This document shows positions 1 through 27,047 of a stretch of DNA of 64,000 bases, piece after piece. Made by a program: the position numbers and the translations under genes. Position 1 is the first letter of the stretch; every line of letters begins with the position of its first letter. Below the pieces are notes generated by a model. The model was not told the origin of the DNA. It saw nothing but the letters and a program-made list of their open reading frames with translations, and did no database searches. This DNA is from Lachnospiraceae bacterium (GTDB lineage: Bacteria; Bacillota; Clostridia; Lachnospirales; Lachnospiraceae), in the NCBI GenBank assembly GCA_900769115.1, contig CAAGFJ010000044.1, forward strand, positions 7,140 through 71,139. The letters run 5' to 3'.

Positions 1-1027
1 AAAAAGATACGGAATTCAGACAGGAGAACCGGTGGTATCCGCAATGAAGAAATGTCCGTCACTGATCATGTACAAGCCACATCAGGAATATTATAGGAGA
101 CAATCCAGTCAACTGATGGAATTGTTCAGAAGATATGCGCCAGTTGTGGATCAGTATTCCATCGACGAGGCATTTCTTGATATGACGGGAACGAATAGTC
201 TGTATGGCGAACCGGTTGCATTTGCCCATGAATTAAAGGATGAGATCAGAAATACATTAGGGTTTACGGTAAATATTGGCATTTCATCCAATCGATTACT
301 TGCAAAAATGGCGAGTGATTTTACTAAGCCGGATCGGGTGCATACACTTTTTCCAAATGAGATACAGACAAAAATGTGGCCACTTCCGGTAGAAGATCTG
401 TTTTATGTTGGAAAATCAACCGCGGTTAAATTGCATTCGTTGGGACTGCATACGATCGGGGATATTGCAGGATGTGATCTGGGTATTATGAAGTCCCATT
501 TCAAGAGCCATGGAGAAGTAATCTATAACTTTGCGAATGGAATTGATCTGACATTAGAAGATCGGACGGAGAAAGTGCAAAAAGGATATGGGAATTCCAC
601 TACAATTCCATATGATATTAAGGATAGCGAAGCCGCTTATCATACGATTATGAAGTTGTGTGAATCTGTTTGTGGAAGAATGAGGAAGGACCATGTACAG
701 GCACTGGTGTTGTCAGTGGAATTGAAGGACAGTAATTTTGTGGTGCGGAGACATCAGCGAACGTTGTTGTCTCCGACAGATGTAACAGATGAATGTTTTC
801 TGGTTGCCTGTGAATTATTTGACGAATTATGGGATGGGTCGCCGATCCGGTTGATCGGAGTGACAGCAAATAAAGTGGAAGATGCAGGAAACCGTCAACT
901 CAATCTGTTTGACATGGAAAGTCATGATAAGAAGCACAAATTAGATACGGCGTTAGATTCCATCCGGGAGAAGTATGGTAAGGATGCAATCAAGCGTGGA
1001 AGTCTTTTTGACAGAACATCCGGTTAA
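1..1027 (+). CDS. dinB: DNA polymerase IV (Y-family translesion polymerase), 5' end outside window
   Basis: Frame is open from base 2 (KRYGIQTGEPVVSAMKKCP...), so the listed GTG at 32 is internal. Motifs SIDEAFLDMTG and NIGISSNRLLAKMASDFTKPD are typical of DinB/UmuC family. Stop at 1025-1027. Confidence 0.9.
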   Translation, partial: KRYGIQTGEPVVSAMKKCPSLIMYKPHQEYYRRQSSQLMELFRRYAPVVDQYSIDEAFLDMTGTNSLYGEPVAFAHELKDEIRNTLGFTVNIGISSNRLLAKMASDFTKPDRVHTLFPNEIQTKMWPLPVEDLFYVGKSTAVKLHSLGLHTIGDIAGCDLGIMKSHFKSHGEVIYNFANGIDLTLEDRTEKVQKGYGNSTTIPYDIKDSEAAYHTIMKLCESVCGRMRKDHVQALVLSVELKDSNFVVRRHQRTLLSPTDVTDECFLVACELFDELWDGSPIRLIGVTANKVEDAGNRQLNLFDMESHDKKHKLDTALDSIREKYGKDAIKRGSLFDRTSG

Positions 1028-1053
1028 TTGAAAGGTTCTTCCATATAAAAAGG

Positions 1054-1083
1054 AAGCAGGGCGAGATTATATCAGCCCTGCTT
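1054..1083 (-). terminator. Hairpin terminator between convergent dinB and HD-hydrolase genes
   Basis: 9-bp perfect stem AAGCAGGGC (1054-1062) / GCCCTGCTT (1075-1083) with a 12-nt loop. On the minus strand it is followed by CCTTTTTAT. The stop codon of the minus-strand gene lies in the loop. Confidence 0.5.
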
Positions 1084-1513
1084 GTTGATATTCTGTTAAT
1101 TTTTGAAGAATGACTTTGTGGTATTTCTCATATTTTTGAAAACGTGCTTCATCTTTGGGGGTCGGATAAGGAATGCGGTCACGGTTCAGGTTATCTTCCA
1201 TATCATATAATTTGATCTGGGTTGCCAATGGATTCGCTAAAACCCGGTCAATGAAAGTGCCGTAGGATTCACCCTTGTGCTTGGTGATACAGTCGATTGC
1301 GGCAAGTACTTCCTCTGAAAAGCCTTCTAATCGCAGCATATCTAAGGTGACGGGTGTGTCTTCTACTACGTCATGCAGGATGCCTACGATCATCTCGGTA
1401 TCGTTCCTGCCACGCAGCATAACCCGCATGGGATGAAGGATATATTCCCTGCCTGCTTTGTCGATCTGTCCTCTGTGTGCTTCTACTGCAATCTCAATGG
1501 CTTTCTCTAACAT
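1067..1513 (-). CDS. Stand-alone RelA/SpoT-homologue HD-domain hydrolase (small alarmone hydrolase-like)
   Basis: AVEAHRGQIDKAGREYILHP and ILHDVVEDT match the (p)ppGpp-hydrolase HD motifs of RSH proteins. There is no synthetase domain. I moved the start to ATG 1513 (MLEKAIE...), 5 nt downstream of GGAGG (the ORF-track TTG start at 1525 lies 3 nt upstream of this GGAGG). Confidence 0.7.
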   Translation of the reverse strand: MLEKAIEIAVEAHRGQIDKAGREYILHPMRVMLRGRNDTEMIVGILHDVVEDTPVTLDMLRLEGFSEEVLAAIDCITKHKGESYGTFIDRVLANPLATQIKLYDMEDNLNRDRIPYPTPKDEARFQKYEKYHKVILQKLTEYQQAGLI

Positions 1514-1564
1514 GTTGACCTCCAATGGCTCAAGATGCGTCTGTGTTTGAATTCATCTTCATTC

Positions 1565-1593
1565 ACTATACTATAATTCACATATTTTCTCAA
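1565..1593 (-). promoter_or_regulatory. Candidate sigma-A promoter of the HD-hydrolase gene
   Basis: Minus strand reads TTGAGA (complement of 1588-1593), 17-nt spacer, TATAGT (complement of 1565-1570). Confidence 0.4.
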
Positions 1594-1623
1594 TTTCTTT
1601 TTCTTGGTTTTCAAGAAAAAATT

Positions 1624-1959
1624 TCAATCCAATTCTAATAGCTTATTAATAGCAGGCTGAACCTCCGGATGCTCGCGGTAAGCCTGAATCAGGCGTTTCT
1701 CAAATGCGGTTGCATGCAGCGGTTCGGAATCCTTTGGCAGATAACCGAATGCGGTAAGAATGTCGTCAATGCCATAAAGCTTGCAAAGATATAATAAACG
1801 GTCTGCATCTGGTTGTGTACGACCGGATTCCCAGGCATAAATGGTCTTTGTTGCAGATGGAAGATTGGCATCATTTAGTTTGTCGGATACGTTCTGGACG
1901 GAAAGCTCCCGGAGCGTTCTATAGTATCGGAGTATTCTGCCGATTTGTTCATTTTTCAT
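1624..1959 (-). CDS. XRE-family helix-turn-helix transcriptional regulator
   Basis: N-terminal HTH_3-like LRELSVQNVSDKL...TIYAWESGRTQP. 111 aa. Divergent from the ssp-like operon. Confidence 0.8.
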   Translation of the reverse strand: MKNEQIGRILRYYRTLRELSVQNVSDKLNDANLPSATKTIYAWESGRTQPDADRLLYLCKLYGIDDILTAFGYLPKDSEPLHATAFEKRLIQAYREHPEVQPAINKLLELD

Positions 1960-2068
1960 GGCTAATTCCTTTCGTGGTTCGTTCTTGTGGACGTGCCATC
2001 ATTCATAGTATATGCGGATTTCCAGTGTTTTTTCTATATTAGCCCAGCAAAAAGGGAGTGTCAATTGA

Positions 2069-2159
2069 TTCTCGGAAAAAGAACTTTAATTTAGTTGATA
2101 TTCTCGCCAAATGAGAATATAATGGAAGAATGCGAGAAATAATTCTACGATTCCGAGAA
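2069..2159. promoter_or_regulatory. Nested inverted repeats (TTCTCG / CGAGAA half-sites) around the operon promoter; putative operator
   Basis: Outer pair TTCTCGGAA 2069-2077 and TTCCGAGAA 2151-2159 are perfect reverse complements. Inner pair is TTCTCGC 2101-2107 and GCGAGAA 2132-2138. The inner pair brackets the -10 hexamer. Confidence 0.5.
2095..2123 (+). promoter_or_regulatory. Near-consensus sigma-A promoter for the HTH-ssp-like operon
   Basis: TTGATA 2095-2100, 17-nt spacer, TATAAT 2118-2123, about 50 nt upstream of ATG 2173. Confidence 0.55.
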
Positions 2160-2172
2160 AAGGTGGAGAGGA

Positions 2173-2364
2173 ATGAAGGTAACGAATCGTTTGGCGAACT
2201 ATATAGCACAGCAGCATATTTCACCGGAACGGGTGGCAAAGGATACGGGTGTTGCCATTGAGAAGTTAGTTCCTGAGACGGATCAGATCTTAGAGGCAGA
2301 AGAGTTTCTGGAACTATGCTTATATCTCGGAATTCGACCGGAAGATATGGATGGAAGAGAATGA
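2173..2364 (+). CDS. Small HTH-like protein (63 aa), first gene of the ssp-like operon
   Basis: RBS GGTGGAGAGG precedes ATG 2173. NRLANYIAQQHISPERVAKDTGVAIEKL resembles an XRE-type HTH. Its stop overlaps the next start (ATGA at 2361-2364). Confidence 0.5.
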   Translation: MKVTNRLANYIAQQHISPERVAKDTGVAIEKLVPETDQILEAEEFLELCLYLGIRPEDMDGRE

Positions 2365-4079
2365 TTACGTATCGATGTGAGAGAGACAATATAGAATGTA
2401 CAAGCAGTATTTGCCCGGTTTGCAGGGAACGGACGCAGTTGGTAAGAACAGACATTTTCTGGTGTGAGAATTGTCAGGTGCCGCTTTTTGGAGAACAGTG
2501 TGGATGTTGCGGGAAGACAGGAAAAAGGTTCGGCTCGGATATCCGTCCGGTATTTCCGGAGGAACGGTTATTGATGGAGACGGTATTACATGAACCAATG
2601 AAGTATCACCAGACCTCGGTGTGGAATACAGCAGGAAACCGTTATTATGCAGATGGAAAGCATATTCTTTTTTCGGTCAAACAATTAGCACAGGTGGATG
2701 CAGATGCAATCCGGCGGCAGATCGAAGAGTGTACAGTAGAGAATACATATGAATATTTTGACCGGATGGTAGAACGGTTTGTGAAGGCAAACAGAGACCG
2801 GTATGAAGAGATTGTATCGGAGGCAACGGCGTATATCCGGAATATGGCACAGGGATATGATGCAAAGGATATGTTTGTGTCTTTTAGTGGTGGCAAGGAT
2901 TCGACTGTGACCGGAGATCTGGTGACAAGAGCACTGGCGAATCCGAGAATCTTACATATTTTTGGAGACACGACATTGGAGTTTCCGGAGACTTATGCAT
3001 ATGTAGAGCGTTTCAGGAAAGCACATAGTAAGACGACACCGGTGCTTTCTTCCAGAAATAAAGATAAGGACTTTGAACAGCTATGTAAGCTGCTCGGTCC
3101 GCCAAGTCGTGTTATGCGGTGGTGTTGCACCATTTTTAAGACGGGGGCAATCACAAGAAAGATTCAGACCTTATTTGGAAAAAAGGAACGGATTGTTGCC
3201 TTTTATGGAATTCGTAGGAGTGAATCGGTGAGCCGGAGCAAATATGACCGGGAATCGAATAGTCCGAAGATTGCCAAGCAGATTACCGTGTCGCCGATCA
3301 TTGACTGGCTGGACTTTGATGTGTGGTTATATCTGCTGACGACAGGAATTGATTTCAACCGGGCATATCGTCTGGGGTATTCCCGTGTGGGCTGCTGGTG
3401 TTGTCCGAATAACAGCGGGTGGTCCGAGTTCTTATCCAGAGTTTATATGCCAGAGCAGTCGGCACATTTCCGGCAGATGTTAGTGGACTTTGCGGTATCG
3501 GTAGGCAAGCCGGATGCAGAGGTCTATGTGGATACCGGCAAATGGAAAGCAAGACAAGGTGGTAACGGGATAGAGTATGCCAAGAATGCAGTGGTGGAAT
3601 TTGCGCCGTGTGCAACGGAAGAGAATGCATTTAATTACGAGTTATCAAAGCCGATCACAGAACAGTTGTATGAGCTGTTTAAGCCGTTTGGTACGTTGAA
3701 TTATGAGATGGGTAATGCCCGGCTTGGTGAAGTCTATGTGTTGAACAGCAGGGGTGAAGTGGCACTCAAATTGCAGGGACGTATCGGAACGAATGCGCTT
3801 AAAGTAACAATCTATCAGGTGCATCTGGCAGGTGCAAGATCCCTTAAGACAGCAGAGGAACGGGTGAAATGCCAGCTTACCAAATATCAGATGTGTATGG
3901 GCTGTCTGGCATGTGAGGGCGTTTGTAAGCATGATGCGATCTCTATCCGGGAAGGGGAAGATGGCAGTATCCATTATCAAATATCGGAGGAACACTGTAT
4001 CCGGTGTGGCGAGTGCGTTGGTCATTTTAATTCGGGATGTTATATGAGGAAGGTGTTAGCCACCAAGCGGGGAGTATAG
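2361..4079 (+). CDS. sspD: PAPS-reductase/PP-loop ATP pyrophosphatase family protein (SspD/DndC-like) with N-terminal Cys-rich zinc ribbon and C-terminal 2x[4Fe-4S] ferredoxin domain
   Basis: PP-loop SFSGGKDS and MRWCCTIFK motif. N-terminus CPVCRERT...CENCQ...CGCCGK. C-terminus CMGCLACEGVC and CIRCGECVGHFNSGC. Start moved to ATG 2361 (GGAAGAGA RBS, ATGA coupling). Confidence 0.75.
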   Translation: MITYRCERDNIECTSSICPVCRERTQLVRTDIFWCENCQVPLFGEQCGCCGKTGKRFGSDIRPVFPEERLLMETVLHEPMKYHQTSVWNTAGNRYYADGKHILFSVKQLAQVDADAIRRQIEECTVENTYEYFDRMVERFVKANRDRYEEIVSEATAYIRNMAQGYDAKDMFVSFSGGKDSTVTGDLVTRALANPRILHIFGDTTLEFPETYAYVERFRKAHSKTTPVLSSRNKDKDFEQLCKLLGPPSRVMRWCCTIFKTGAITRKIQTLFGKKERIVAFYGIRRSESVSRSKYDRESNSPKIAKQITVSPIIDWLDFDVWLYLLTTGIDFNRAYRLGYSRVGCWCCPNNSGWSEFLSRVYMPEQSAHFRQMLVDFAVSVGKPDAEVYVDTGKWKARQGGNGIEYAKNAVVEFAPCATEENAFNYELSKPITEQLYELFKPFGTLNYEMGNARLGEVYVLNSRGEVALKLQGRIGTNALKVTIYQVHLAGARSLKTAEERVKCQLTKYQMCMGCLACEGVCKHDAISIREGEDGSIHYQISEEHCIRCGECVGHFNSGCYMRKVLATKRGV

Positions 4080-4212
4080 TGTTTATAGTTTATAGGATGA
4101 GCATAGCGTATGGTCATATTTTAGGGAAAATATTGGGTTTTATATAAAATGGATAGTTACTTGTATTCAATATTTTGTTTTCGTATTACAGGATTAGGAA
4201 GGATTTAGTTAC

Positions 4213-5073
4213 ATGGCAAGAACATATAAGCTTAAGGGACATGAGACATTTATATTAAGGGAAGGCTGGCTGACCAAAGGCTTACAGGCAGTTATAGATG
4301 ATCCGATGGTCTTTGCGGAGAATCACGGTGCAGATGCGCTTGGTGTTGGTACGAACATGGCAAAGGCAATCCGTTACTGGATGAAGGCGGCGGGAATTCT
4401 GCCGGATCGGACCGGTAAGGAGAGCTGCCTGACGGAGCTTGGACAGTTGTTGTATGAATATGATCCTTATATGGAAGATCCCTTTTCTTTATGGCTGGTG
4501 CATCTGGGCATTGCCAGTAACGAGACAGGGGCAACGTCCTGGTATCTGTTCTTTCATAAGATGGAAGAATCGTTTACAAAGGAAGAATTAGTGGAGGAGA
4601 TGACGGGCTGGCTGCTTGCATATACAACGGAGGATAAGTTGTCGGCACGTTCGGTAAGAGATGACTGCAATGCATTGATCGGCATGTATTATGCAGAAAG
4701 GGACCGCAATTATGATCCGGAGGACAAGAAGATCAGTCCGTTTGCAATGCTTGGTCTGCTCCAAAAGACGGGAGACGGCTATCAGAAGTCGCAGCCAGAC
4801 CGGAAATGGCTGCACCGGGATGTAGTCTTATACTGCATGATCCGGATGTTGGGTGCCGATTGGGAGAGCGTGTCGATTGACGATCTGATGACCGGTAACT
4901 GCAGTCCGGGCAGGCTGTTGAATCTAAGCCGTACAACGCTCAATGCATATCTGGATGAATTAGATAATGCAGAATGGATCACAGTGAACCGGACGGCAGG
5001 GTTGGACATGGTGTATCGCGCGAGATCATTTACACCAGAGGAATTAATACAGGAATATTATACACATCGTTAG
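4213..5073 (+). CDS. sspB: DUF4007-family protein (SspB-like)
   Basis: N-terminal KLKGHETFILREGWLTKG matches the GHETF..R.GWL signature I associate with DUF4007. 286 aa. Sits between the PAPS-reductase and large ATPase genes. Confidence 0.6.
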   Translation: MARTYKLKGHETFILREGWLTKGLQAVIDDPMVFAENHGADALGVGTNMAKAIRYWMKAAGILPDRTGKESCLTELGQLLYEYDPYMEDPFSLWLVHLGIASNETGATSWYLFFHKMEESFTKEELVEEMTGWLLAYTTEDKLSARSVRDDCNALIGMYYAERDRNYDPEDKKISPFAMLGLLQKTGDGYQKSQPDRKWLHRDVVLYCMIRMLGADWESVSIDDLMTGNCSPGRLLNLSRTTLNAYLDELDNAEWITVNRTAGLDMVYRARSFTPEELIQEYYTHR

Positions 5074-5084
5074 AGGGAGAGCAT

Positions 5085-8000
5085 ATGGAGTTAAAGAAGG
5101 CTGTACAAGTAGATAATCGATTTCAGAAGTCTGTGAATCTGTTTCTGGATCTGGATAATCCGGATAAGGTGTCGGGGTATATACCGACCTTATCTTCTCT
5201 GGAGATTCTCCGGCAGTATGTGACGAATATTGCAGAGCAGACACACAACCGGGCGAATCTGCTGATTGGGCCGTATGGCAAAGGCAAATCACATCTGATC
5301 CTGTTATTGATGCAGTTGTTCCGGAAGAATCCGCCGGAGCAGGTCTTGGATGCATTAGAGCGGATCGCACAGGTTGATGAGAAGATGGCTTCATACATCC
5401 GTCAGGTGATCGACAGGACACAGCCGCTGCTTCCGGTATTGGTGGATGCAGGAGAAGAATCCCTTGATCAGTCGTTTGCCAAAGCTTTGTATCGTGCGTT
5501 AGAACGGGAAGGATTGCAGGAGATCACACCAGATACCTATTATTCTAAGGCAGTTGATAAGATCGAGGAATGGAAGAAGGATTTTCCGGGAACCTATGAG
5601 CAATTGAGTAGTTGGCTGGGTGAACGGAGCACGACGGTGTCGCAGCTTGTGAAGAAGCTTAAGAAGTTAGATGCAGAGGCGTTACATATCTTTATGGAAT
5701 CATATCCGCTTCTGACAGCAGGAAGTATCTTTGAACCAATGCTGGTAACGAAAGCGCGGGAATTGTATCAGAGTGTAAATGATACCCTTTGCAAGGAATA
5801 TGGATATGGAGGTATCTATATTATCTTTGATGAGTTCAGCAAGTATATCGAGGGATATCAGGGAGACGGTTTTGCGGCAGATATGAAAGTGATCCAGGAT
5901 ATCTGCGAGCTGGCAGACAAGTCTTCCCTAGAACAGCAGCTCCATATTACGCTGATCGCACATAAGAGTATCCGGGAGTATGGCAAGACGTTATCCAAGG
6001 AGAGGATCAATGCGTTCCGTGGTGTAGAGGGAAGATTGAAGGAGATTCTCTTTGTGGTGTCTGCGAAGAATAATTATGAGTTGATCCGTTTGGCGGTCCA
6101 TAAGCAAATGCCGGCTTTTGAGGAGGTCTATGCCCTTTCGTCGTATCGCAGGTTAGTAGAGGACTCGTATCATTTACCGTGCTTTGAGGAATTGTTCCGC
6201 AAGGAGGATTACGAGGAGATTGTGGGGTATGGCTGTTATCCGTTAGTTCCGGCGGCAACTTATCTGCTGCTACGGATCAGTGAGAGAATTGCACAAAATG
6301 AACGGACAATCTTTACCTTTATTGCCGGCAATCAGAAACATTCCCTGCGTGGATATATCGGGGCAGCGAATCATAAGTTAGAGGATTACACCGGGGCAGA
6401 CCTTGTGTACGATTATTTTGACAAGCTTTTGATGGAATCGGATCATAGCAGTCTGATCCATAACGAGTGGCTGAAGGCAGATTATGCATTAGGCAGGGTG
6501 AAGAACCGCAAGGCGCGTAAGGTGATCAAGGCACTTGCGCTGATCCAGATGGTACAGCAGCGGGAGCAGATTCCGGCAAATGATATGGGAATCCGGTTGG
6601 CGGCAGGCCTGTCGGTAGAAGATTATGAGGAAGCAAAGGAGCAGCTTCTTAAGGATGAGATTCTGTTGTACCGGTATGCGTTAGGAACGTACGCTTTTAA
6701 GAATAATGTGGGTGTGGATGTAGAGAAAGAGATTGTAACGATCATGAACCGGAGCTTTCAGAATCTGAATCTTGCAGAGAGTATAAGGAATGTGTCGGAA
6801 TTAGATTATATTCTGCCAAAGCGATATAACCAGTTGTTCTCTATGACCAGATTCTATCAGTATGAGTATATGGGTGTGGAGCAATTCCTTGCCCTGCCAA
6901 GTGCAGAATTGATGTTTCATAATACATCAGATAATGTACTCGGAACGTCGGAGTTTGCGGATGGTAAGATTCTTGCCATTTTGCGGATGCCTGAGGAGGA
7001 TTCAGTGTCGGAAGCGGACGAAGAGACAGCGGCAATCCAGGCTAAGCTGCAGCAGTTGGCGGATGCCAGAGTAATTGTCCTATATCCGGCAAAGGCACGC
7101 TACTATGGGATGCTGCTTCGAAGATTAACGGCAGTTAAAAGTATGCTGTTGGATGAACAGTTCATAGAGGACAATGTCGTGTTAGAGCAGGAACTTCAGC
7201 TCTATGAAGAAGACCTGACGAATGAGATCAATGTGCTGTTGGAACAGGATTACATGATGGGAAAAGAACGTTGTCAGGTATTTCATTGTTCTATGGATCG
7301 GCCGGTAACCATGACCGATCAGGCGGCATTTAATGTGTTCTTAAGTGAAGTCCTGGCAGATTATTATGGAAGCACCCCGAAGGTGAATAATGAGTCCATC
7401 AACCGGGAACATATTTCCGCCCAGATCCGTAAGGCGAGGGATAAGGTGCTTATGCGGATATTGCAGCGGGAATCCTGCGAGGATTACCAGAGAGGAACAG
7501 CACCGGATGCAACAATCTATCGTGCAGTAATGGTACGGACTGGAATTGCGGACGGACAGATCACACCAGAGGTGCAGCAGGTGTTTGACCGGATTCATGA
7601 ATTTGTGGAAGCTTCTTCCTGTGGAAGACAGTCCTTTGCAGCACTTTATCAGACCCTGCAGGGCGAACCGTACGGTGTACGGCGTGGGGTTATCCCGATC
7701 TTTCTTGCCAAGGTATTTGCAGAGCTTATGGATATGCCGGTCATATATGCGAATGGCAAAGAATTATCCTTAGACTGTAATGTCCTTAATAATATCAATG
7801 TGAATCCAATGGAGTATGAGCTGTATGTGGAGGTGGCAACGCTTCAGAAGGAACAATATCTGGCAGAATTAGAGCAGTTGTTTACAGGTCACACAGATGC
7901 AGATGAGGCGAGGAAAGGCAACCGGTTAGAACAGCTTGTTGTGAAGATTCAGCGATGGTATCGCAGTCTGCCACAGTGTGTGCGGATAGCAGATTATGGG

Positions 8001-8744
8001 CAGTTGGAGGACAGAGGATACGAACTGCATTTTGGAGAAGCGGAATGTCGGTTGGTTCGTCTATGGAACCGGAAATTACAGAAATTTGAATTGAATGCCA
8101 GGGATTTTCTGTTTGTGGATATACCGGCGGCAGTGAACGTGGATGTTACAACAGGTGACGTGACGGAATGTGTGACAATATTAACTGCAGTTAAGAATGG
8201 TATGGATTCTCTGCTTGCAAGGATGAAGCGGGAAGCGTTACAGGTAACCAAGACAATCTTCGGTGGCAGGGAAGAAGATAATGTGAATAACTGTCTGAAG
8301 GACTGGTATAGCAGGCAGAGTGAACAGGCAAAAAGTTACCTGCATAACACACAGATCAGCGGATTTATGAATTATGTGGAACATTTAAATACACATGATG
8401 AGGAGCAGATCATCAGTAAGCTTTCAAAAATTGTAATGGATATGTATGTAGAGGATTGGAGCGCGGAATCCTTTGTGCAGTATAAGGAAGCAATGCAGGC
8501 AATCCGGCTTGAGATCGAAGGAATCCGGGATGCAGATATCCATGATCGGAAAGGGCAGCATAGTATTGAATTTACGAATAGTCAGGGACAGCGGATCAAG
8601 AAGTATTTTCAGGCAGAGGAAGATAGTACCAGTTATTTCTTAAAGAATGCCATGGAAGAAGCTATGGATGAATTTGGCGAGACATTGGAGGTGAACCAGA
8701 AGGTGAGCGTTCTCATGTCGATGTTGGAGAATTTGTTAAGTTAG
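5085..8744 (+). CDS. sspC: Large P-loop ATPase, 1219 aa (SspC-like; BrxC/PglY-like DUF499-type head)
   Basis: Walker A GPYGKGKSH (5268-5294) and Walker B IYIIFDEFSKY. Start set at ATG 5085 after GAGGGAGA, 11 nt after the upstream stop. The ORF-track start at 4974 overlaps the previous gene. Confidence 0.65.
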   Translation: MELKKAVQVDNRFQKSVNLFLDLDNPDKVSGYIPTLSSLEILRQYVTNIAEQTHNRANLLIGPYGKGKSHLILLLMQLFRKNPPEQVLDALERIAQVDEKMASYIRQVIDRTQPLLPVLVDAGEESLDQSFAKALYRALEREGLQEITPDTYYSKAVDKIEEWKKDFPGTYEQLSSWLGERSTTVSQLVKKLKKLDAEALHIFMESYPLLTAGSIFEPMLVTKARELYQSVNDTLCKEYGYGGIYIIFDEFSKYIEGYQGDGFAADMKVIQDICELADKSSLEQQLHITLIAHKSIREYGKTLSKERINAFRGVEGRLKEILFVVSAKNNYELIRLAVHKQMPAFEEVYALSSYRRLVEDSYHLPCFEELFRKEDYEEIVGYGCYPLVPAATYLLLRISERIAQNERTIFTFIAGNQKHSLRGYIGAANHKLEDYTGADLVYDYFDKLLMESDHSSLIHNEWLKADYALGRVKNRKARKVIKALALIQMVQQREQIPANDMGIRLAAGLSVEDYEEAKEQLLKDEILLYRYALGTYAFKNNVGVDVEKEIVTIMNRSFQNLNLAESIRNVSELDYILPKRYNQLFSMTRFYQYEYMGVEQFLALPSAELMFHNTSDNVLGTSEFADGKILAILRMPEEDSVSEADEETAAIQAKLQQLADARVIVLYPAKARYYGMLLRRLTAVKSMLLDEQFIEDNVVLEQELQLYEEDLTNEINVLLEQDYMMGKERCQVFHCSMDRPVTMTDQAAFNVFLSEVLADYYGSTPKVNNESINREHISAQIRKARDKVLMRILQRESCEDYQRGTAPDATIYRAVMVRTGIADGQITPEVQQVFDRIHEFVEASSCGRQSFAALYQTLQGEPYGVRRGVIPIFLAKVFAELMDMPVIYANGKELSLDCNVLNNINVNPMEYELYVEVATLQKEQYLAELEQLFTGHTDADEARKGNRLEQLVVKIQRWYRSLPQCVRIADYGQLEDRGYELHFGEAECRLVRLWNRKLQKFELNARDFLFVDIPAAVNVDVTTGDVTECVTILTAVKNGMDSLLARMKREALQVTKTIFGGREEDNVNNCLKDWYSRQSEQAKSYLHNTQISGFMNYVEHLNTHDEEQIISKLSKIVMDMYVEDWSAESFVQYKEAMQAIRLEIEGIRDADIHDRKGQHSIEFTNSQGQRIKKYFQAEEDSTSYFLKNAMEEAMDEFGETLEVNQKVSVLMSMLENLLS

Positions 8745-8771
8745 GATGCAATCCGATAGGCGGTGATGTAG

Positions 8772-9926
8772 ATGAAAGCAGGACTATATTTTGATAATGC
8801 GGCAACCACATATCCGAAGCCGGAGGAGGTCTATCAGGCAATGGACGAAACGGCAAGAACGATGGGAGTTAATGCCGGACGAGGTGGATATGAGGCGGCA
8901 AGACAGGCAAGTCGGTTGATTGAAGATACACGGGAACTGGTATTGCAGATGGTTCGGGCACAGTCCGGTGCACAGGTTGTATTCGCGGCATCTGCAACAC
9001 TTGCCATGAATCTGGTAATCGGTGGAATCGAGTGGAAGGATTCAGATGTGGTGTATGTATCACCATTTGAACATAACGCCGTTGCAAGAACGCTGCATGC
9101 TTATCAGGAGCAATATGGCTTTACCATCTTGGAACTGCCAATCTGTGAGGAACGGTTGCAGCTTGATCTTACGCAGATTCTATATGCATTTACCAAGAAT
9201 CCGCCGGATTATGTATTTATGAGCCATGTCAGCAATGTGACAGGGTACATTTTGGAGATCGAAGAAGTGAGCGGCATGGCACATGATAAAGGGGCAAAGG
9301 TAATCGTGGATGCGTCACAGTCATGTGGATTACTTCCAATCGATATTCGGAGTGGAATGATGGATGTTGTAGTGTTCGCCGGACATAAGACGATGTATGG
9401 ACCATTTGGCATAGGGGGCTATGTGAATAATACCGGTCTTTCCTTGCAGCCGCTTCTATATGGGGGAACCGGAACCGATTCGTTGAATCTTAACATGCCA
9501 CCGGGAATATCCGGACTAGAGCCGGGCAGCCCGAATATTATTGCTCTTGCAGGATTACGGGCGGGGCTTACTTATCTCAAAGAGCATAGAGGAATTGAGA
9601 AGAGGGAATGGGAACTGACGCAGTATCTGGTGTCGTGCATGGAACGTGTGCCACATGTTCACCTATATTTGCCATCCGACCGAGATCGTCATAGCAGTAT
9701 GGCAGCATTTAATATCGAGGGTTACAAGTCAGACGAAGTTGGTATGATATTAGATCAGGACTATGGAATTGCAGTTCGTACCGGATACCATTGTGCACCG
9801 TTCATCCACAAATACCTGAAAGATAAGGAGAGTCTGGGAGTGGTTCGGGCTAGTATCGGCTGCTTTACCACAAAAGAGGATGTGGATGTGTTGGTCGGAG
9901 CGGTGAAGGAGATTGCGGAGGAGTAG
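8772..9926 (+). CDS. sspA: Class V aminotransferase-fold cysteine desulfurase (SspA/DndA-like)
   Basis: FDNAATT start region, PLP-lysine context FAGHKTMYGPFGIGG and active-site-Cys context RTGYHCAP, as in SufS/NifS-type desulfurases. Confidence 0.8.
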   Translation: MKAGLYFDNAATTYPKPEEVYQAMDETARTMGVNAGRGGYEAARQASRLIEDTRELVLQMVRAQSGAQVVFAASATLAMNLVIGGIEWKDSDVVYVSPFEHNAVARTLHAYQEQYGFTILELPICEERLQLDLTQILYAFTKNPPDYVFMSHVSNVTGYILEIEEVSGMAHDKGAKVIVDASQSCGLLPIDIRSGMMDVVVFAGHKTMYGPFGIGGYVNNTGLSLQPLLYGGTGTDSLNLNMPPGISGLEPGSPNIIALAGLRAGLTYLKEHRGIEKREWELTQYLVSCMERVPHVHLYLPSDRDRHSSMAAFNIEGYKSDEVGMILDQDYGIAVRTGYHCAPFIHKYLKDKESLGVVRASIGCFTTKEDVDVLVGAVKEIAEE

Positions 9927-9953
9927 TAAGGAGAAAACGAAGGAGGAATCATT

Positions 9954-12245
9954 ATGGATTTAAAGGGAGCAGAGATTCGTAACATTATTGATTTGTGCAA
10001 GGATATTGGTGGGAAAGGAGAGGTTCCGCTATGCATTAATATTCCTTATTATCAGCGTCCTTATAAGTGGACGGAAGATCAGGTTGGCAATTTAATATCT
10101 GACTTTTATAAGAATAAGGCAGAAAATAAGGTAGAGGATAAGAAGGATAATGAGGCGGCAAAGTATTTTGTGGGATCAGTTGTGCTGGTCAAGAACGCAA
10201 GGGGAACAGATAGACATGATGTGATTGACGGACAGCAGAGATTAACGACGGTATTTTTGATGAATTATTTGCGTTTTCTATTGTTACGTTCATATATTCA
10301 AGAATTGTTAAGCGCGGGAAGAATTATAAGGGAGAGTGTATTGACGGATTTTGCACAAAGCTACGGGCAGTTATTTGGGCAAAAACATATGAATGCAATT
10401 AATCAGGTTAATGAGACAATTTTGGATGAAATGGAGACAATTACAGATAAAGATAAGGATCCTTGGGAATCTGTGTATAAGCATTTGTTACAACAATATG
10501 AGACAGCAGTATCATTGCCAACGAAAGATTTGTCAGATATGCGGCAATATTATTCGCAATATATTACAAGTCTATCTGGTTTTTTATCTCAAGACGAATT
10601 AGCATTGCGTTATAGTAGGGAAACATTTAATAAGAACTTAAAAGATGCATTGTCAAGGATTGTGGTAATTGTGTCAAAGGATAAAAATCCAGAAATTCAT
10701 GTAGATTATGATGTAAAGAAGGAAACCTGTCTGTCAAGCTATATTGAAGCAGTCAAATGTCAATTTACCTGTGTGTATGACAATGTGGTAAATGATGCAA
10801 AGGATTCATTGGATATGGTAAAGAAAATGATTGATGGCATTTCTGAAATGATTAATAATATTAATTTTTGTATGATTATGACTGGAAATGAAAGAGATGC
10901 CTATACGCTTTTTGAGGTGTTAAATGATCGTGCGCTTAAGATTGAAGATTTAGATCTGATTAAGAATCTTTACTATAAAGAATACTGTACCAAATCGAAT
11001 GATGACGATAACTACATAGATGCCAGAATACAGGAGCTAGACGAAATATGGGGAGATAAGGTATTTTCAAGAGATTTGCCGGATGCCAAGATCAAATTGA
11101 TCTCTTATCTGGGGACCATTTATCTGACTGCAGACGAAGATGTGTTTATTAATAAGGTTGAGAAATATCGGGAGATATTAGAGAAGAAGTATTTTGACTG
11201 TCACTACCATAAACAGACCAATCCTTATACATATGATAAGGTACTACGGGATGTCTGCATTTATCAAATGGTGAAAATTATAATTGGTGTATTCGATCTA
11301 CCCGTGAACAATGCAGCAGCAGAGGCAATTAAGGCAGAATGTGACATGGAGAAATCTATTACCTATAAGACGTTCCATTTGTTGAATGCGCTGAAGTTGC
11401 AGGGCGTAATGCCGGCTCTTGTAAATCTAATCATTAAGAAATATTTTATGTATTGTGAAGCGAAACAGCAGGAAGTGACAATGGAGGAATTTGAACAGTA
11501 TGTTTTAAAGATTGCAAAGGATAAGAATCATGAAAATGAAGATTTTCAAGATATTCATGTATGGTCACATAAGCTTTGGAAAATCGCATTGTATGCGGAT
11601 GGATATAAGATTCCAAGGGAAGTAGCTAAGAATATTGTTGCACGGGTATATGTGGATAAGTATGATCTGGATTCGTACGAGATTAAAAATGATCTGATTG
11701 AGGAGGCACAAGTGCAATTCAAGAACTGGACTTCAAATTGGATGTATAGTAAACCTGTTGAAGATTTGAAAATTAAGATACTACTGATTAATTTATTCCG
11801 GATGGAAAAGGTAGGCGAGACTTTAAAAACATGTTCGACAACGTATAGTTTTAAGACAGAACGATTACATTTGGATCATCTGGAAGCGGATAAGTATGAT
11901 AAGGTAAATGAGGAAAAATATTTTAAACCGAGTGATCCGAATGAGGAACGGGAAAAGTATACAAATGGTCTTGGTAATTTTATGATCTTAGACTATGAAA
12001 ATAATAATGAAAAAGATAACAAGCCATTATCAGACGGTTTAGAATATTATAATAATATGCGTCCAGGTCATTGGATGATTCAGGAGATAAGAGATATGCT
12101 GAATGATGATCATTATTCACAGATCAAGATGGGGAGTTATCGTGTGCCAACAGAAGCATTTTTCAATGAACGAAAAAGCAGATTGCAGGGTTATTTTATG
12201 TCTTTGTTGAATGGTAAATTGGATGAAGAGGAATTGGCTTTGTAG
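9954..12245 (+). CDS. sspE: DUF262 (ParB/DGQQR NTPase-like) + DUF1524 (His-Me finger nuclease) protein, SspE/GmrSD-like effector
   Basis: IPYYQRPYKW and DGQQRLTT at the N-terminus. LHLDHLEAD ... GNFMILDYENNNEKDNKP at the C-terminus. AGGAGG RBS before ATG 9954. Markedly AT-richer than the upstream genes. Confidence 0.65.
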   Translation: MDLKGAEIRNIIDLCKDIGGKGEVPLCINIPYYQRPYKWTEDQVGNLISDFYKNKAENKVEDKKDNEAAKYFVGSVVLVKNARGTDRHDVIDGQQRLTTVFLMNYLRFLLLRSYIQELLSAGRIIRESVLTDFAQSYGQLFGQKHMNAINQVNETILDEMETITDKDKDPWESVYKHLLQQYETAVSLPTKDLSDMRQYYSQYITSLSGFLSQDELALRYSRETFNKNLKDALSRIVVIVSKDKNPEIHVDYDVKKETCLSSYIEAVKCQFTCVYDNVVNDAKDSLDMVKKMIDGISEMINNINFCMIMTGNERDAYTLFEVLNDRALKIEDLDLIKNLYYKEYCTKSNDDDNYIDARIQELDEIWGDKVFSRDLPDAKIKLISYLGTIYLTADEDVFINKVEKYREILEKKYFDCHYHKQTNPYTYDKVLRDVCIYQMVKIIIGVFDLPVNNAAAEAIKAECDMEKSITYKTFHLLNALKLQGVMPALVNLIIKKYFMYCEAKQQEVTMEEFEQYVLKIAKDKNHENEDFQDIHVWSHKLWKIALYADGYKIPREVAKNIVARVYVDKYDLDSYEIKNDLIEEAQVQFKNWTSNWMYSKPVEDLKIKILLINLFRMEKVGETLKTCSTTYSFKTERLHLDHLEADKYDKVNEEKYFKPSDPNEEREKYTNGLGNFMILDYENNNEKDNKPLSDGLEYYNNMRPGHWMIQEIRDMLNDDHYSQIKMGSYRVPTEAFFNERKSRLQGYFMSLLNGKLDEEELAL

Positions 12246-12260
12246 AATTTTAGCTGCACT

Positions 12261-12305
12261 GCACTCAATGTTATTTACCTGTTATTTAGCACTCAATGTT
12301 ATTTA
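12261..12305. repeat. Two direct copies of GCACTCAATGTTATTTA
   Basis: Copies at 12261-12277 and 12289-12305, identical, 28-nt period. Confidence 0.85.
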
Positions 12306-12394
12306 GGTCGGAAAAAGTGTATATTTTATATTAAAACAGGTCGGAAAAAATGTATAAAACTATGTTGAATAGGTCGGAAAAAATGTGTTATACT
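12305..12394. repeat. Three phased direct repeats AGGTCGGAAAAA(A/G)TGT(A/G)T, the last abutting an extended -10
   Basis: Copies start at 12305, 12338 and 12371, an exact 33-nt period. TGtTATACT sits at 12386-12394, 28 nt upstream of ATG 12423. Confidence 0.85.
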
Positions 12395-12422
12395 ATAAAT
12401 AACATGGAAAGAGGGTGTTGGT

Positions 12423-13712
12423 ATGCAGCGGTTTGCTATGGATCAATTGTTACGTTGGAAAGATAAGGATAATCGAAAACCATTAGTTATTATGGGTGCA
12501 AGACAGGTTGGTAAGACCTGGTTAATGAAGGAATTTGGCAGGACCTGTTATAAGAAGGTGGCATACATTTCTTTTTATAATAACAGTCGTATGGACCAAG
12601 TGTTTCAGATGGATTTTGATGTGGAACGAATTCTTATGAATCTTAATATCGAAGCGGGTGTAACGATTACACCAGAGGATACACTTGTTATATTGGATGA
12701 GATACAGAATTCGCCGAAAGCATTAGAATCACTAAAATATTTCTGTGAAGAAGCACCACAATATCATATAGTGGCAGCAGGGTCACTGCTTGGAGTGGCA
12801 ATTCATGAAGGAGTGTCCTATCCGGTAGGTAAAGTTGATCTGTTAGATTTGTATCCTCTTAATTTCAGAGAATTTCTTTGTGCAATGGAAGAAAATGCTT
12901 TGTCAGATGCTCTGGCAACGAAGGATTATACGATTATTGATAATTTCTCAGAAAAATATCTATTTTGGATGAAGAACTATTATTATGTAGGCGGCATGCC
13001 GGGGGTAGTTGAGGAATTCCGGATGCACAAGGATTATAATGAGGTGCGCCAGATTCAGAGTGATATTGTTCGGCAGTATGAGGGAGATTTTGGAAAACAT
13101 ATTGATGCTAAGACATTGCCAAGAATTAGGATGGTATGGGATTCTATTCCAATACAGCTTGCAAAAGAGAATAAGAAATTCTTCTTTGGACAGATTAAAA
13201 AGGGTGCTCGTAGCAGTGATTATGAAATTGCCATCCAGTGGCTGGTTGATTGCGGTTTAATATATAAAGTAAATCGTGTAAACGAACCGCATATGCCACT
13301 CAAGGCATATAAGAGCATGAATGCCTATAAGTTGTTTCTGTTGGATGTAGGATTGTTAGGGGCATTGAGTGAATTGACTGCAGAATCCATTTTGGAAGGA
13401 AATGATATTTTTGTCGAGTTTAAAGGGGCATTGACAGAACAATATGTTTTACAACAACTAATCTCGGATACAGAATATACGCCGTATTATTTTGGTACAG
13501 AGAAATCGACATTTGAACAGGACTTTTTAATTCAAAAAGGAAAGAATGTTATTCCAATTGAAGTGAAGGCAGAAGGAAATACTCGATCCCAAAGTTTGAA
13601 AGTATATTGCGATAAATATCACCCGGAGAAAGCAGTTCGATTTTCTACTTTGAATTATATGGATCAAGGATGGATGGTCAATATACCGTTGTATGCAGTG
13701 TGCAATTTGTAA
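12423..13712 (+). CDS. AAA-family ATPase with DUF4143-type C-terminal region
   Basis: Walker A GARQVGKTW and Walker B LVILDEIQN. 429 aa, the typical size and architecture of AAA_14/DUF4143 proteins. Confidence 0.8.
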   Translation: MQRFAMDQLLRWKDKDNRKPLVIMGARQVGKTWLMKEFGRTCYKKVAYISFYNNSRMDQVFQMDFDVERILMNLNIEAGVTITPEDTLVILDEIQNSPKALESLKYFCEEAPQYHIVAAGSLLGVAIHEGVSYPVGKVDLLDLYPLNFREFLCAMEENALSDALATKDYTIIDNFSEKYLFWMKNYYYVGGMPGVVEEFRMHKDYNEVRQIQSDIVRQYEGDFGKHIDAKTLPRIRMVWDSIPIQLAKENKKFFFGQIKKGARSSDYEIAIQWLVDCGLIYKVNRVNEPHMPLKAYKSMNAYKLFLLDVGLLGALSELTAESILEGNDIFVEFKGALTEQYVLQQLISDTEYTPYYFGTEKSTFEQDFLIQKGKNVIPIEVKAEGNTRSQSLKVYCDKYHPEKAVRFSTLNYMDQGWMVNIPLYAVCNL

Positions 13713-13714
13713 AG

Positions 13715-13740
13715 AAAGGGAGCAAGGCTCTCTTTTATAT
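13715..13740 (+). terminator. Possible intrinsic terminator after the AAA ATPase gene
   Basis: AAAGGGAGC-AAG-GCTCTCTTT hairpin (9 bp with one G.U) running into TTTTATATTTT. Confidence 0.4.
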
Positions 13741-13940
13741 TTTGCACACATTCCCTTTTTGCGCATACTATAAGGATATAGATTGCCTCATTAGTCGGTA
13801 TGAAAATTCGTCCTGAATCTATTACAGAGTCATTGTCATTTGCGCGCATTTGTGAGAAAATACACAAGGGTGTGCGTTTCCCGTCGGTGGCGGGATTCGC
13901 ATAGCCGATTCAGGACTTTATAATAGGAGAAAAGGATAAG

Positions 13941-14246
13941 ATGGAAGAAACGGCATACACCTATATGGTGGAATGTGGGGATGGAAGTTTATATACGGGC
14001 TGGACGAATCATTTAGCAAAGAGGATTCAGAATCATAACCAGGGAAAAGGTGCTAAATATACCAGATCGAGACTTCCGGTGCATCTTGTGTATTATGAAG
14101 TGTTTGCAACGAAGCAGGAGGCTATGCAGCGGGAGTGTGCGATTAAGAAGTTGAAGCATAAGGACAAGCTGCAATTGATTGAGCAGCTGCAGAAAGATAA
14201 GAGTGATATGATTCAGCGGATTAACGAGACATTAACAGACGATTAA
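13941..14246 (+). CDS. GIY-YIG nuclease-family protein (UPF0213-like)
   Basis: YTYMVECGDGSLYTGWTNHLAKRIQNHN...AKYT. 101 aa. Confidence 0.85.
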   Translation: MEETAYTYMVECGDGSLYTGWTNHLAKRIQNHNQGKGAKYTRSRLPVHLVYYEVFATKQEAMQRECAIKKLKHKDKLQLIEQLQKDKSDMIQRINETLTDD

Positions 14247-14354
14247 AGGATGTTACAAATGTGATACAATCAGTTGATAAGAGTGTATTATATGATAATG
14301 AATTTTGAAAATGCAATAAGAACAGATAAGATATAACGATAAGAAGTGACAGAA

Positions 14355-15128
14355 ATGAACAAGAGATATCAGAAGTTTTATAAGAAACAGGGGAATAGAA
14401 GAGCGGGAAAAGGGAGAATCATGGATGCAAAGGAACGCAAGAGACGTTTGCTGGCAACCGGTATTTTTATGATTTCTGCTTTTTTTGTCATGTTAGCAGT
14501 GATCTATGCATTTCGCTATTTTTATAAGCAGGCACATATAGAAGAGGAAATGGTAACGACCGAAGAGGTGATTCAGGTACCTCCGCTTTCCGGCGTAGCA
14601 GAACAGTTTACGGATCTTCCTATTACAGAGGAATTCTTAGATGTCAACCAGTATTCCAGACCGGGGATTGCACTGTCAACGAATCCGGAGTATGTGGTCA
14701 TTCATTATACAGCGAATCCGGGATCAACGGCCGAACAGAACCGGAATTATTTTGAGAATCTGAAGGATACCGGGGAGACTTATGCGAGTGCGCAGTTTGT
14801 GATTGGATTAGAGGGTGAGATCATTCAGTGTGTGCCTTGTGACGAGATGGCGTATTGTTCCAATAGTCTCAATGACCGCTGCATATCTATTGAGATGTGC
14901 CATCCGGACGATACCGGGAATTTCAATGATGCAACGTATAATAATTGCGTGTATTTAGTAGCGCAACTCATGAATTATTATCATTTGGACATGGATCATT
15001 TGATCCGGCATTATGATGTGACGGGGAAGAATTGTCCGAAATATTTTGTGGAGCATGAAGACCGTTGGGAGGTCTTTAAAGACTTTGTGAAACAGTATCG
15101 GGAGAAATACCAAAATGGCGAAAAATAA
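14355..15128 (+). CDS. N-acetylmuramoyl-L-alanine amidase (Amidase_2/PGRP-type) with N-terminal membrane anchor
   Basis: YVVIHYTANPGSTAEQNRNYF...ISIEMCHPD and a TM helix LLATGIFMISAFFVMLAVIYAF. Start is ambiguous: GTG 14346, ATG 14355, or ATG 14421 preceded by GGGAG. Confidence 0.8.
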   Translation: MNKRYQKFYKKQGNRRAGKGRIMDAKERKRRLLATGIFMISAFFVMLAVIYAFRYFYKQAHIEEEMVTTEEVIQVPPLSGVAEQFTDLPITEEFLDVNQYSRPGIALSTNPEYVVIHYTANPGSTAEQNRNYFENLKDTGETYASAQFVIGLEGEIIQCVPCDEMAYCSNSLNDRCISIEMCHPDDTGNFNDATYNNCVYLVAQLMNYYHLDMDHLIRHYDVTGKNCPKYFVEHEDRWEVFKDFVKQYREKYQNGEK

Positions 15129-15319
15129 TTGAATATTATCTTGCAATATAATACGCTAGCAAGTATGATAGATATAGTGTTTCCGTAAGAAGGGAAACGC
15201 AACACATTGTAGTTGTGACAGAATAAGGGGATGGAATTTTTGAGGTGTGCCGATGTAGAAGAGGGGATGCTGATGGAAGAACGCCGTTGTCACGACATGC
15301 CTAAGAGAAGGGAGATATT

Positions 15320-27027: not shown

Positions 27028-27047
27028 ATATAAGGATATAAGATACT

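Follow-up and report, generated by a model that had tools for sequence, protein, structure and literature searches.

A probable Ssp-type DNA phosphorothioation island with a BrxP-like SspD protein and an exchangeable DUF262-HNH effector in a Lachnospiraceae bacterium

Gene content of the island

Within a stretch of 64,000 nt of contig CAAGFJ010000044.1 from a Lachnospiraceae bacterium (hereafter the window, whose positions serve as gene coordinates throughout), six intact genes lie on the + strand between positions 2173 and 12245 in the order HTH-D-B-C-A-E, HTH standing for a helix-turn-helix protein. Very probably they belong to a chromosomal Ssp-type DNA phosphorothioation (PT) restriction-modification island of a Lachnospiraceae-like Clostridium, in which the writer genes D, B, C and A are followed by the gene of a PT-sensing effector, E. 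This reading is carried by the gene content, the motifs, the homology of the proteins, the conserved D-B-C-A synteny and the cassette nature of E, all of which are observed directly. A preliminary description of the same DNA had proposed an Ssp-type system made of six co-directional and tightly spaced genes in this order. The open reading frame (ORF) listing bears out the arrangement, and the type of system is upheld as well, B being an SspB (DUF4007) protein, C an SspC, A a class V desulfurase, and E having the architecture and the key residues of SspE. The six genes are the following.

2173..2364, + strand: small HTH protein, 63 aa (Pfam HTH_26, E=0.006, weak)
2361..4079, + strand: D, SspD-like PP-loop enzyme of BrxP type, 572 aa (Pfam PAPS_reduct, PADLOC BrxP)
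4213..5073, + strand: B, SspB (DUF4007), predicted DNA-binding/nicking subunit, 286 aa (Pfam DUF4007, PADLOC SspB)
5085..8744, + strand: C, SspC large P-loop ATPase, 1219 aa (PADLOC SspC)
8772..9926, + strand: A, class V cysteine desulfurase (SufS/EF2568-like) in the SspA position, 384 aa (Pfam Aminotran_5, NCBIfam TIGR01977)
9954..12245, + strand: E, SspE-like DUF262 + HNH effector, 763 aa (Pfam GmrSD_N, PADLOC, AlphaFold2/Foldseek)

The intergenic gaps, taken successively from HTH through D, B, C and A to E, are -4, 133, 11, 27 and 27 nt, and the ATG of D overlaps the HTH stop codon as ATGA (translational coupling). With gaps of this size (-4 to 133 nt) and a conserved synteny, the genes show the operon-like clustering of an Ssp module. 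The length of C is counted from the second ATG of the ORF 4974-8744, at 5085, 11 nt past the B stop codon. The 133-nt D-B spacer (4080-4212) is AT-rich, with a GC content of 0.28, and may hold an internal promoter. It is present also in the related locus L087, and is only 4 nt long in the Eubacterium loci L001-L004. All the motifs quoted in the preliminary description were located, i.e., SFSGGKDS and RWCC in D, GHETF and REGWL in B, HK (as GHK) and GYHCAP in A, and DGQQR and H..N..N in E. Its remarks that the SspD-like protein carries extra domains and that the gene order is unlike that of the proteobacterial prototypes (D-B-C-A-E against A-B-C-D-E) were likewise correct, the extra domains being an N-terminal cysteine-rich region and a C-terminal ferredoxin region.

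The writer proteins

D has the PAPS-reductase-fold PP-loop ATP pyrophosphatase that characterises SspD (Pfam PAPS_reduct 3.2e-35, followed by Fer4_7 5e-6), with the caveat that its best specific model is BrxP and not SspD: in PADLOC it reached 6.6e-89 on BrxP, over model positions 20-514 of 779, versus 4e-15 on SspD and 4e-11 on DndC. This preference does not come merely from the extra domains, since for the PAPS core by itself (aa 160-375) the BrxP score was 204 bits and the SspD score 57 bits. BrxP was likewise matched by the last 197 aa (5.8e-16), and the first 159 aa gave no match to anything in the profile search. Along the protein we located SFSGGKDS (aa 174-181), RWCC (aa 253-256), CWCC, CxxCxxCxxxC (aa 512-522) and CxxCxxC (aa 546-552). 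The N-terminal region contains a set of CxxC pairs and is probably a zinc ribbon, and the C-terminal CxxCxxCxxxC ... CxxCxxC...C pattern is typical of a two-cluster (4Fe-4S) ferredoxin; most of the motif cysteines are invariant across 9 homologues. An AlphaFold2 model of D built on a 9-sequence alignment is of low confidence (predicted local distance difference test, pLDDT, 64) and was not used for domain boundaries. Its Foldseek matches are TtuA, NcsA and APS/PAPS reductases, TtuA and NcsA being iron-sulfur (Fe-S)-dependent PP-loop sulfurtransferases. These matches are in line with the sequence, without proving it independently. BrxP is a PAPS reductase fused to DUF4007, and in the window D covers the first part of the model while DUF4007 is encoded by a separate gene. 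D would thus be a BrxP-type enzyme with the DUF4007 domain split off. A BrxP-like architecture with an Fe-S region has already been recorded in a subset of SspD proteins (PMC12839542).

The separate DUF4007 protein, B, matches Pfam DUF4007 over its full length (9.1e-90), as an SspB does. PADLOC assigns it to SspB at 2e-58, versus 1.3e-9 for the DUF4007 part of BrxP, and it matches the solved SspB (6JUF/6LB9) at 5.5e-17. The large ATPase C reached 2.2e-106 and 355 bits on the best of 12 SspC models, versus 5.8e-26 and 88 bits on BrxC, and carries the expected Walker A (GPYGKGKS, aa 62-69) and Walker B (IIFDE, aa 246-250) sequences of an SspC. The window protein has no Pfam match, its sequence comparison with the PDB gave nothing useful, and its homologues in related loci carry recorded BrxC-PglY_N matches. 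For A, the cysteine desulfurase of the module, the evidence is at the level of the family: Pfam Aminotran_5 at 9.1e-75, NCBIfam TIGR01977 at 1.7e-104 (349.8 bits, just under the cut-off of 377) and SufS at 9e-69, together with the lysine that binds pyridoxal phosphate (GHK) and the catalytic cysteine motif. The PADLOC scores of A on SspA (9e-40) and DndA (2e-37) are about equal, and the profile libraries hold no specific SspA signal for it. NCBIfam contained no models naming B, C or E.

The effector E

E begins with a DUF262 domain (a ParB-like NTPase with DGQQR) and ends with an HNH nuclease domain of DUF1524 type, the two being separated by a long helical section. From 424 homologues found at E<=1e-5, 43 with 39-94% identity to the window protein were aligned, and P31, Y33, Q34, R35, D92-G-Q-Q-R96, H642, N675 and N684 were invariant in these 43 family members. 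The DUF262 NTPase of SspE is therefore present in E (Pfam GmrSD_N at 1.9e-27, with D92GQQR96 invariant), and the DUF1524 HNH part (H..N..N) is recognised by family conservation and fold, the Pfam GmrSD_C match (E=0.0017) being under the cut-off. In PADLOC the best matches are HEC-06 (1e-27) and Orf5 (8e-24), followed by SspE at 2e-10 over the N-terminal part only.

The direct sequence search of the PDB returned DndI (9JFL, 6.7e-10) as the sole solved relative and did not reach SspE, the family profile being needed for both SspE structures. With this profile, DndI was found at 1.8e-16, the E. coli SspE (20YV) at 7e-10 and the Streptomyces SspE at 1.9e-7. The AlphaFold2 model based on the 43-member alignment has a pLDDT of 87; its sole significant Foldseek matches in the PDB are DndI (2e-9) and the Streptomyces SspE (1e-8 and 3.5e-8), with a weaker one to BrxU (6.5e-4), and it matches DndI and SspE over their full length. 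In the profile alignment, P31-Y32-Y33-Q34-R35 of the window protein lies over P61-A62-Y63-Q64-R65 of E. coli SspE (EcSspE), R96 over R133 and N684 over N724. P61, Y63 and Q64 form the PT-recognition pocket of EcSspE (PMC13251355), with Y30/Q31 as the counterpart in Streptomyces SspE (StSspE; PMC9646914), and R133 and N724 are the GTPase arginine and a nuclease residue, respectively (PMC13251355, PMC9646914). The PT pocket is retained in E as sequence conservation, in a YQR motif that is widespread in DUF262 proteins. An exhaustive search gave about 146 clusters at 50% identity with E<=1e-30 to E, standing apart from a DUF262 superfamily of 4402 at E<=1e-3. No match to E was found in phage records.

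Distribution of the module and the slot after sspA

Gut Eubacterium and Lachnospiraceae very commonly encode D-like proteins with at least 66% identity to D of the window; a single one of these was found on ~1000 contigs. With one genome per species scanned, at least 539 genomes have a D relative, almost all of them Clostridia, and the closest relative (90%) comes from a rumen Lachnospiraceae metagenome-assembled genome. The Gram-positive context given in the preliminary description is accordingly right, the nearest relatives being Lachnospiraceae and other Clostridia. B follows D in 75 of the 77 species-level loci with DNA beyond D (the exceptions are L039 and L057), and after D-B come C and then A wherever the DNA of the locus extends far enough. 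Hundreds of Clostridia genomes contain the D-B-C-A module. Among plasmids, D-like proteins are uncommon (6 records, best identity 43.5%), and nothing suggests a plasmid or prophage location of the locus.

The gene that follows this constant module is variable. The 61 loci with at least 2.5 kb beyond sspA, i.e., 60 related species-level loci and the window, carry the following cassettes at this position.

20 of 61 loci: PbeA + PbeC
13 of 61 loci: a different DUF262 protein of 730-790 aa, with or without PbeC
8 of 61 loci: SspF (with SspG)
6 of 61 loci, including the window: window-type E
5 of 61 loci: PbeC directly
5 of 61 loci: a DndI-like DUF262-DUF1524 protein of 620 aa, with or without PbeC
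1 of 61 loci: a truncated DUF262 protein + PbeC
3 of 61 loci: something else

A recognisable restriction-type cassette therefore occupies the slot in 57 of the 60 related species-level loci (examples are L007 16667-20811, L044 17796-21061, L024 17602-21623 and L011 17480-19705). As the PbeABCD and SspFGH modules stand at exactly the same post-sspA position in close relatives (L007, L005 and 20 of the 61 loci for PbeA + PbeC, 8 of the 61 for SspF), either can take the place of E as the partner of this writer. They occur only in these relatives, and their presence in the window itself was rejected. No description of an Ssp writer paired with PbeABCD was found in the literature searched. Conversely, sspA is immediately followed by an E-family gene in each of the five loci retrieved from E, in five of the species loci retrieved from D and in L003/L004, always on the same strand and with gaps of 13-62 nt in the loci tabulated. 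In L093 (9001-15410) the E-family gene is followed by a helicase-only gene, a 57-aa protein, an AAA_23 ATPase and a DNA_S_mod_dnd_assoc_4 protein, and in L094 (9001-13977) by a 49-aa protein, an AAA_23 ATPase and a 172-aa protein without family match. Since Pbe-like partners trail E in these two loci, E is able to replace the HKD nuclease of PbeA within a Pbe-type module. In both loci a type II CRISPR-Cas9 locus lies directly downstream.

Boundaries and divergence of the island

The edge of the slot is sharp at the nucleotide level. L007 occupies the same chromosomal site and its D is 90% identical; its homology with the window runs from the DinB flank up to the base that precedes the sspA stop codon (9923) and breaks off there, L007 continuing with PbeA. 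In GC content the four writer genes lie at 0.46-0.48, while E has 0.35 and the gene after it 0.37. This last gene and its surroundings are as follows.

12423..13712, + strand: AAA_14 + DUF4143 ATPase, PADLOC candidate PDC-S01 (PADLOC PDC-S01 3.6e-184; Pfam AAA_14 3.5e-28, DUF4143 6.6e-36)
13714-13736: terminator-like hairpin, 3' of the AAA_14/DUF4143 gene

Two strains, L087 and L091, share with the window the right flank (permease, upp) at 99-100% protein identity and the same E at 90-94%. The identity of their writer proteins to those of the window is 78-83% for C, 83-85% for B and 89% for D. Over window positions 1-17400, identity to L087/L091 is no more than 78-91% in the left flank (DinB, HD-like) and the Ssp genes, among which SspC and SspB diverge most. 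These values suggest recombination or diversifying selection across the island, and we infer that the greatest divergence in C and B would fit a diversification of target specificity. In the position after E, L087 has complete MNT-HEPN-type genes and L091 a set in which only the nucleotidyltransferase is recognisable, in place of the AAA_14/DUF4143 ATPase. This position is a second variable slot in the same island, and the ATPase of the window is probably an independent variable passenger and not part of Ssp. Because the right flank is nearly identical while the writer genes diverge and the slots are swapped, the island changes more quickly than that flank and is a composite of exchangeable parts.

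The regulatory region

The operon is preceded by a divergently oriented HTH gene and a control region.

1624..1959, - strand: Xre-type HTH regulator, 111 aa (Pfam HTH_31 1.5e-5 and HTH_3 1.8e-4, both slightly under their cut-offs)
1960..2172: control region between the divergent HTH genes, with promoter-like sites and a palindrome

By tblastn, 34 of 80 related species-level loci have a homologue of the divergent Xre-type gene, placed and oriented as in the window, and the gene is also present in L001-L006, L087 and L091. A jackhmmer search placed a member of the small HTH family, ending at the start of D, in 33 of 72 related loci including the window; the orthologue in L089 carries a recorded HTH_26 match. 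The 213 nt between the two genes (1960-2172) are 92-95% identical to those of L087, L091 and L007, versus 81-85% for the flanking HTH genes in most comparisons. This region contains the best promoter match found in 1500-14400, a sigma-70-like TTGATA-17-TATAAT on the + strand (2095-2123, 11/12), and an opposing promoter-like site on the - strand at 2064-2036. A perfect 8-nt palindrome, ATATTCTC-N7-GAGAATAT (2098-2120), falls within the spacer of the + promoter and, from its position and its conservation, we infer a putative operator. The intergenic region looks like a controller-protein arrangement, and the 111-aa HTH protein is a candidate controller of the operon. Region 1960-2172 also carries TTCTCG/CGAGAA-type repeats; the heptamer ATTCTCG was not enriched in the window (11 found, 8.7 expected).

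Comparison with characterised systems

The five functions of SspABCD-SspE, as known from Vibrio cyclitrophicus FF75, E. coli 3234/A and Streptomyces yokosukanensis, are all present in the window, where an effector in the 750-800 aa range with DUF262 (DGQQR) and HNH domains likewise lies directly 3' of the writer genes. Of the residues shown to be important in SspE, E retains the P-x-Y-Q pocket, the arginine of DGQQR and H..N..N (PMC9646914, PMC13251355). Unlike in these systems, where the order is A-B-C-D-E, the genes run D-B-C-A-E, D has roughly twice the length of the PADLOC SspD model (572 aa versus 277 positions) and is nearer to BrxP, A is SufS/EF2568-like without a specific SspA signal, and two Xre-type HTH genes stand ahead of the operon.

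DndI of Salmonella enterica Cerro 87 (9JFL) is the closest solved relative of E by sequence, profile and fold, with the same DUF262(DGQQR) + DUF1524 HNH layout, and its PT-sensing tyrosine Y25 aligns with Y33 of the window protein (PMC11662687). However, DndI has 596 aa and pairs with dndBCDE (double-strand PT), whereas E has 763 aa, a longer helical middle and an Ssp-type writer. The context of a DndI-type system, a ~600-aa effector accompanied by dndBCDE(FGH), is not that of the window, in which no dndB, dndD or dndE was found. DndI and SspE themselves differ, DndI being toxic without PT and SspE not.

PbeABCD and SspFGH resemble E in the position that they take after sspA in close relatives of the window. 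They differ from it in being multi-gene systems found in those relatives and not in the window, PbeABCD combining an HKD nuclease-helicase with an ABC ATPase (CxC ABC-ATPase-anchored), and SspFGH an ATPase with an FtsK-like translocase.

Proposed mechanism

The biochemical steps, the PT motif, the anti-phage effect and the regulation are proposed here by analogy with characterised homologues. A would take sulfur from cysteine as a persulfide, and D, with its PP-loop and Fe-S clusters, would adenylate a backbone phosphate and insert the sulfur. B and the large ATPase C would bind the DNA, select the sites and nick them, and the product would be PT that is sparse and confined to a single strand, its context most likely resembling CpsC(A). 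E would scan DNA via its DUF262 NTPase domain, its P-x-Y-Q pocket sensing PT on self DNA; following the model developed for SspE (PMC9646914, PMC13251355), hydrolysis of nucleoside triphosphate would flip the conformation of E, and the HNH domain would nick unmarked (phage) DNA. The two small divergent Xre-type HTH proteins would probably control the operon via the palindrome in the main promoter.

Several observations on characterised systems bear on such a scheme. The SspA cysteine desulfurase of the Ssp module is dispensable where IscS substitutes for it. The minimal PT-writing gene set is sspBCD, and BrxP and BrxC, homologues of D+B and of C, suffice for PT synthesis given a desulfurase (PMC12914056). 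The occurrence of sspBCD clusters in gut Clostridiales has been reported, and liquid chromatography-mass spectrometry detected CpsC in 34 isolates from the gut, of which all except two possess sspBCD, accompanied or not by sspE (PMC12914056). According to the same work, Ssp systems give CpsC(A), and Brx systems also write CpsA, ApsC, ApsA and TpsC (PMC12914056).

Alternative explanations

The proximity of D to BrxP raises the alternative that the locus is a BREX (bacteriophage exclusion) type 4 system or a derivative of it, with D as BrxP, C as BrxC and a BREX-like defence in place of a PT-sensing nuclease. The genes that define BREX type 4 are brxP, brxC, pglZ and brxL (PMC12914056, PMC12839542), BrxP being in effect an SspD-SspB fusion and BrxC a homologue of SspC (PMC12914056). 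The score of D on BrxP (6.6e-89), the preference of its PAPS core for BrxP over SspD (204 versus 57 bits) and the match of C to BrxC (5.8e-26) are in agreement with this alternative, and the type 4 system of Bacteroides salyersiae shares with the window a BrxP-type PAPS reductase with an extra domain and a 4Fe-4S cysteine-rich region, an ATPase homologous to C and, presumably, the PT-writing chemistry (PMC12914056, PMC12839542). Yet neither PglZ (BrxZ) nor BrxL/Lon gave any Pfam or PADLOC match among the genes from 1 to ~24 kb and the other large ORFs scanned, and neither was found among the called genes of the related loci surveyed. In addition, DUF4007 is unfused and belongs to SspB rather than to BrxP (2e-58 versus 1e-9), C scores 355 bits on SspC against 88 on BrxC, and the window has a dedicated desulfurase and a DUF262-HNH nuclease, unlike BREX type 4. 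The preliminary description had allowed that profile searches might place the PAPS-reductase and ATPase genes in another system; this holds for D, which goes to BrxP over SspD, and not for C, which stays with SspC. With PglZ and BrxL absent from the genes scanned, BREX type 4 was rejected as the label of the system, and because of the separate SspB-type DUF4007, the SspC-type ATPase and this absence, the locus is labelled Ssp with a BrxP-type D. We consider it very unlikely that the locus is a BREX type 4 system or derives from one.

A different question is whether E reads PT at all. E could be an independent type IV enzyme of the GmrSD/BrxU kind that merely adjoins a PT writer and attacks modified phage DNA, as might be suggested by its best PADLOC matches, HEC-06 and Orf5 instead of SspE, by its Pfam family GmrSD_N, by the detectable structural kinship with BrxU, and by its foreign base composition in a swappable cassette. 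We hold this to be unlikely, since E-family genes adjoin sspA on the same strand with short gaps in every context examined, BrxU trails DndI and SspE by orders of magnitude in the structural and profile comparisons, the PT-pocket residues of SspE are conserved, and the alternative cassettes at the same junction are the PT-linked modules Pbe and SspFG. It is also conceivable that the writer mainly serves a role outside defence, such as epigenetic regulation or redox buffering by PT, with E as a decaying or unrelated passenger, given that many dnd modification clusters lack restriction partners (PMC10853773), that PT modification is partial and has been connected with gene regulation (PMC9239176), and that PT is enriched in rRNA genes (PMC12914056). 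But E is intact with all its catalytic residues, the post-sspA slot of 57 of the 60 related species-level loci holds a restriction-type cassette, and the island is shared with other defence-type genes (PDC-S01 or MNT-HEPN), which makes such a role extremely improbable.

Against the Ssp-type reading that we favour stand a number of points concerning E, the PT motif and the regulation. For this locus and organism, that reading comes from sequence and homology. The preliminary description had treated the last gene as the SspE-like member of the system, and its architecture, its context and its key residues agree with that, whereas its orthology with SspE does not hold. E is 11-15% identical to the solved SspE and DndI structures, while EcSspE and StSspE are mutually 40% identical. 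Since its SspE score is weak and N-terminal, its identity is this low and its family is discrete, E is not an orthologue of SspE. It belongs to a family separate from the characterised SspE and DndI and about equally distant from both, and resembles SspE in its architecture and its context. The YQR and DGQQR motifs occur generally in DUF262 proteins and are no proof of PT sensing. In view of its GC content of 0.35 versus 0.47 in the writer genes, E was acquired separately from them, and its functional match to the writer is assumed. As D is nearer to BrxP than to canonical SspD, the PT motif could differ from CpsCA. Lastly, with one mismatch allowed, 31 of 100 shuffles give at least one match to the palindrome, which occurs once in the window and is thus not significant alone, and the family assignments of the HTH proteins are weak (Pfam matches below cut-off).

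Other features of the window

Upstream of the island lie DinB, an HD-like protein and HTH genes; downstream, the AAA_14/DUF4143 ATPase is followed by GIY-YIG, amidase, uracil permease and upp genes, and pyruvate:ferredoxin oxidoreductase and GH25 lysozyme genes are found farther out. A 561-aa ORF (17569-19254, - strand) gave no significant Pfam or PADLOC match; the DNA around it has a lower GC (0.34) and its strand bias is reversed. Beside a tRNA-Lys(ctt) gene (24512-24585), Wadjet type III-like genes extend over 24661-32320 on the + strand.

24661-26187, + strand: JetA3 (PADLOC 3.7e-217)
27048-27767, + strand: JetB3 (PADLOC 4e-103)
27794-32320, + strand: JetC3 (PADLOC 1884 bits)

Two small ORFs (26277-26642 and 26590-27027) are located between JetA3 and JetB3. 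No JetD nuclease subunit was seen after JetC3, the next gene (32377-33318) encoding an aldose 1-epimerase, and the JetABC3 cluster could be an MksBEF-like condensin or an incomplete Wadjet. A polysaccharide biosynthesis cluster at 51708-63455 (+ strand), ordinary but compositionally foreign (GC 0.26-0.34), encodes a priming sugar transferase, five GT2 glycosyltransferases, an EpsG-type polymerase, a UDP-galactopyranose mutase and a flippase.

Significance

Ssp systems, their presence in gut Clostridiales and the nature of BrxP as an SspD-SspB fusion are already published (PMC12914056), as are the Fe-S-bearing SspD (PMC12839542) and several DUF262-HNH readers of PT (PMC9646914, PMC11662687). 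The kind of system is widespread and recognised in gut Clostridia, and conceptually little is new. The traits of its own that the locus adds are modest, namely a D-B-C-A order that does not vary in this clade, two Xre-type genes, an E family apart from SspE and DndI, and a sharply bounded effector slot that includes an Ssp-Pbe pairing. Tentatively, and with a chance that we put slightly short of even, these traits may be joined in a single reading, in which the Clostridial D-B-C-A would be an evolutionary intermediate between Ssp and BREX type 4 with a plug-in slot after sspA, i.e., a BrxP-type Fe-S writer with DUF4007 split off and an SspC-type ATPase, without PglZ or BrxL, and E would be a third lineage of PT-sensing DUF262-HNH proteins beside SspE and DndI, possibly for a non-CpsCA motif and under the control of the Xre pair.

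Judging from the scores of the single proteins, profile annotation may label D as BrxP and E as HEC-06, with the result that such a locus is filed as a mixed or 'other' DNA-modification system. The island is a compact and intact example, from an abundant gut and rumen Firmicute clade, of a BrxP-type writer combined with a single-gene effector, and it is suited to asking whether a BrxP-type SspD writes CpsCA or another motif. The slot after sspA, which accepts E-type, DndI-like and other DUF262 nucleases as well as PbeABCD and SspFG, is a natural experiment on the matching of reader and writer.

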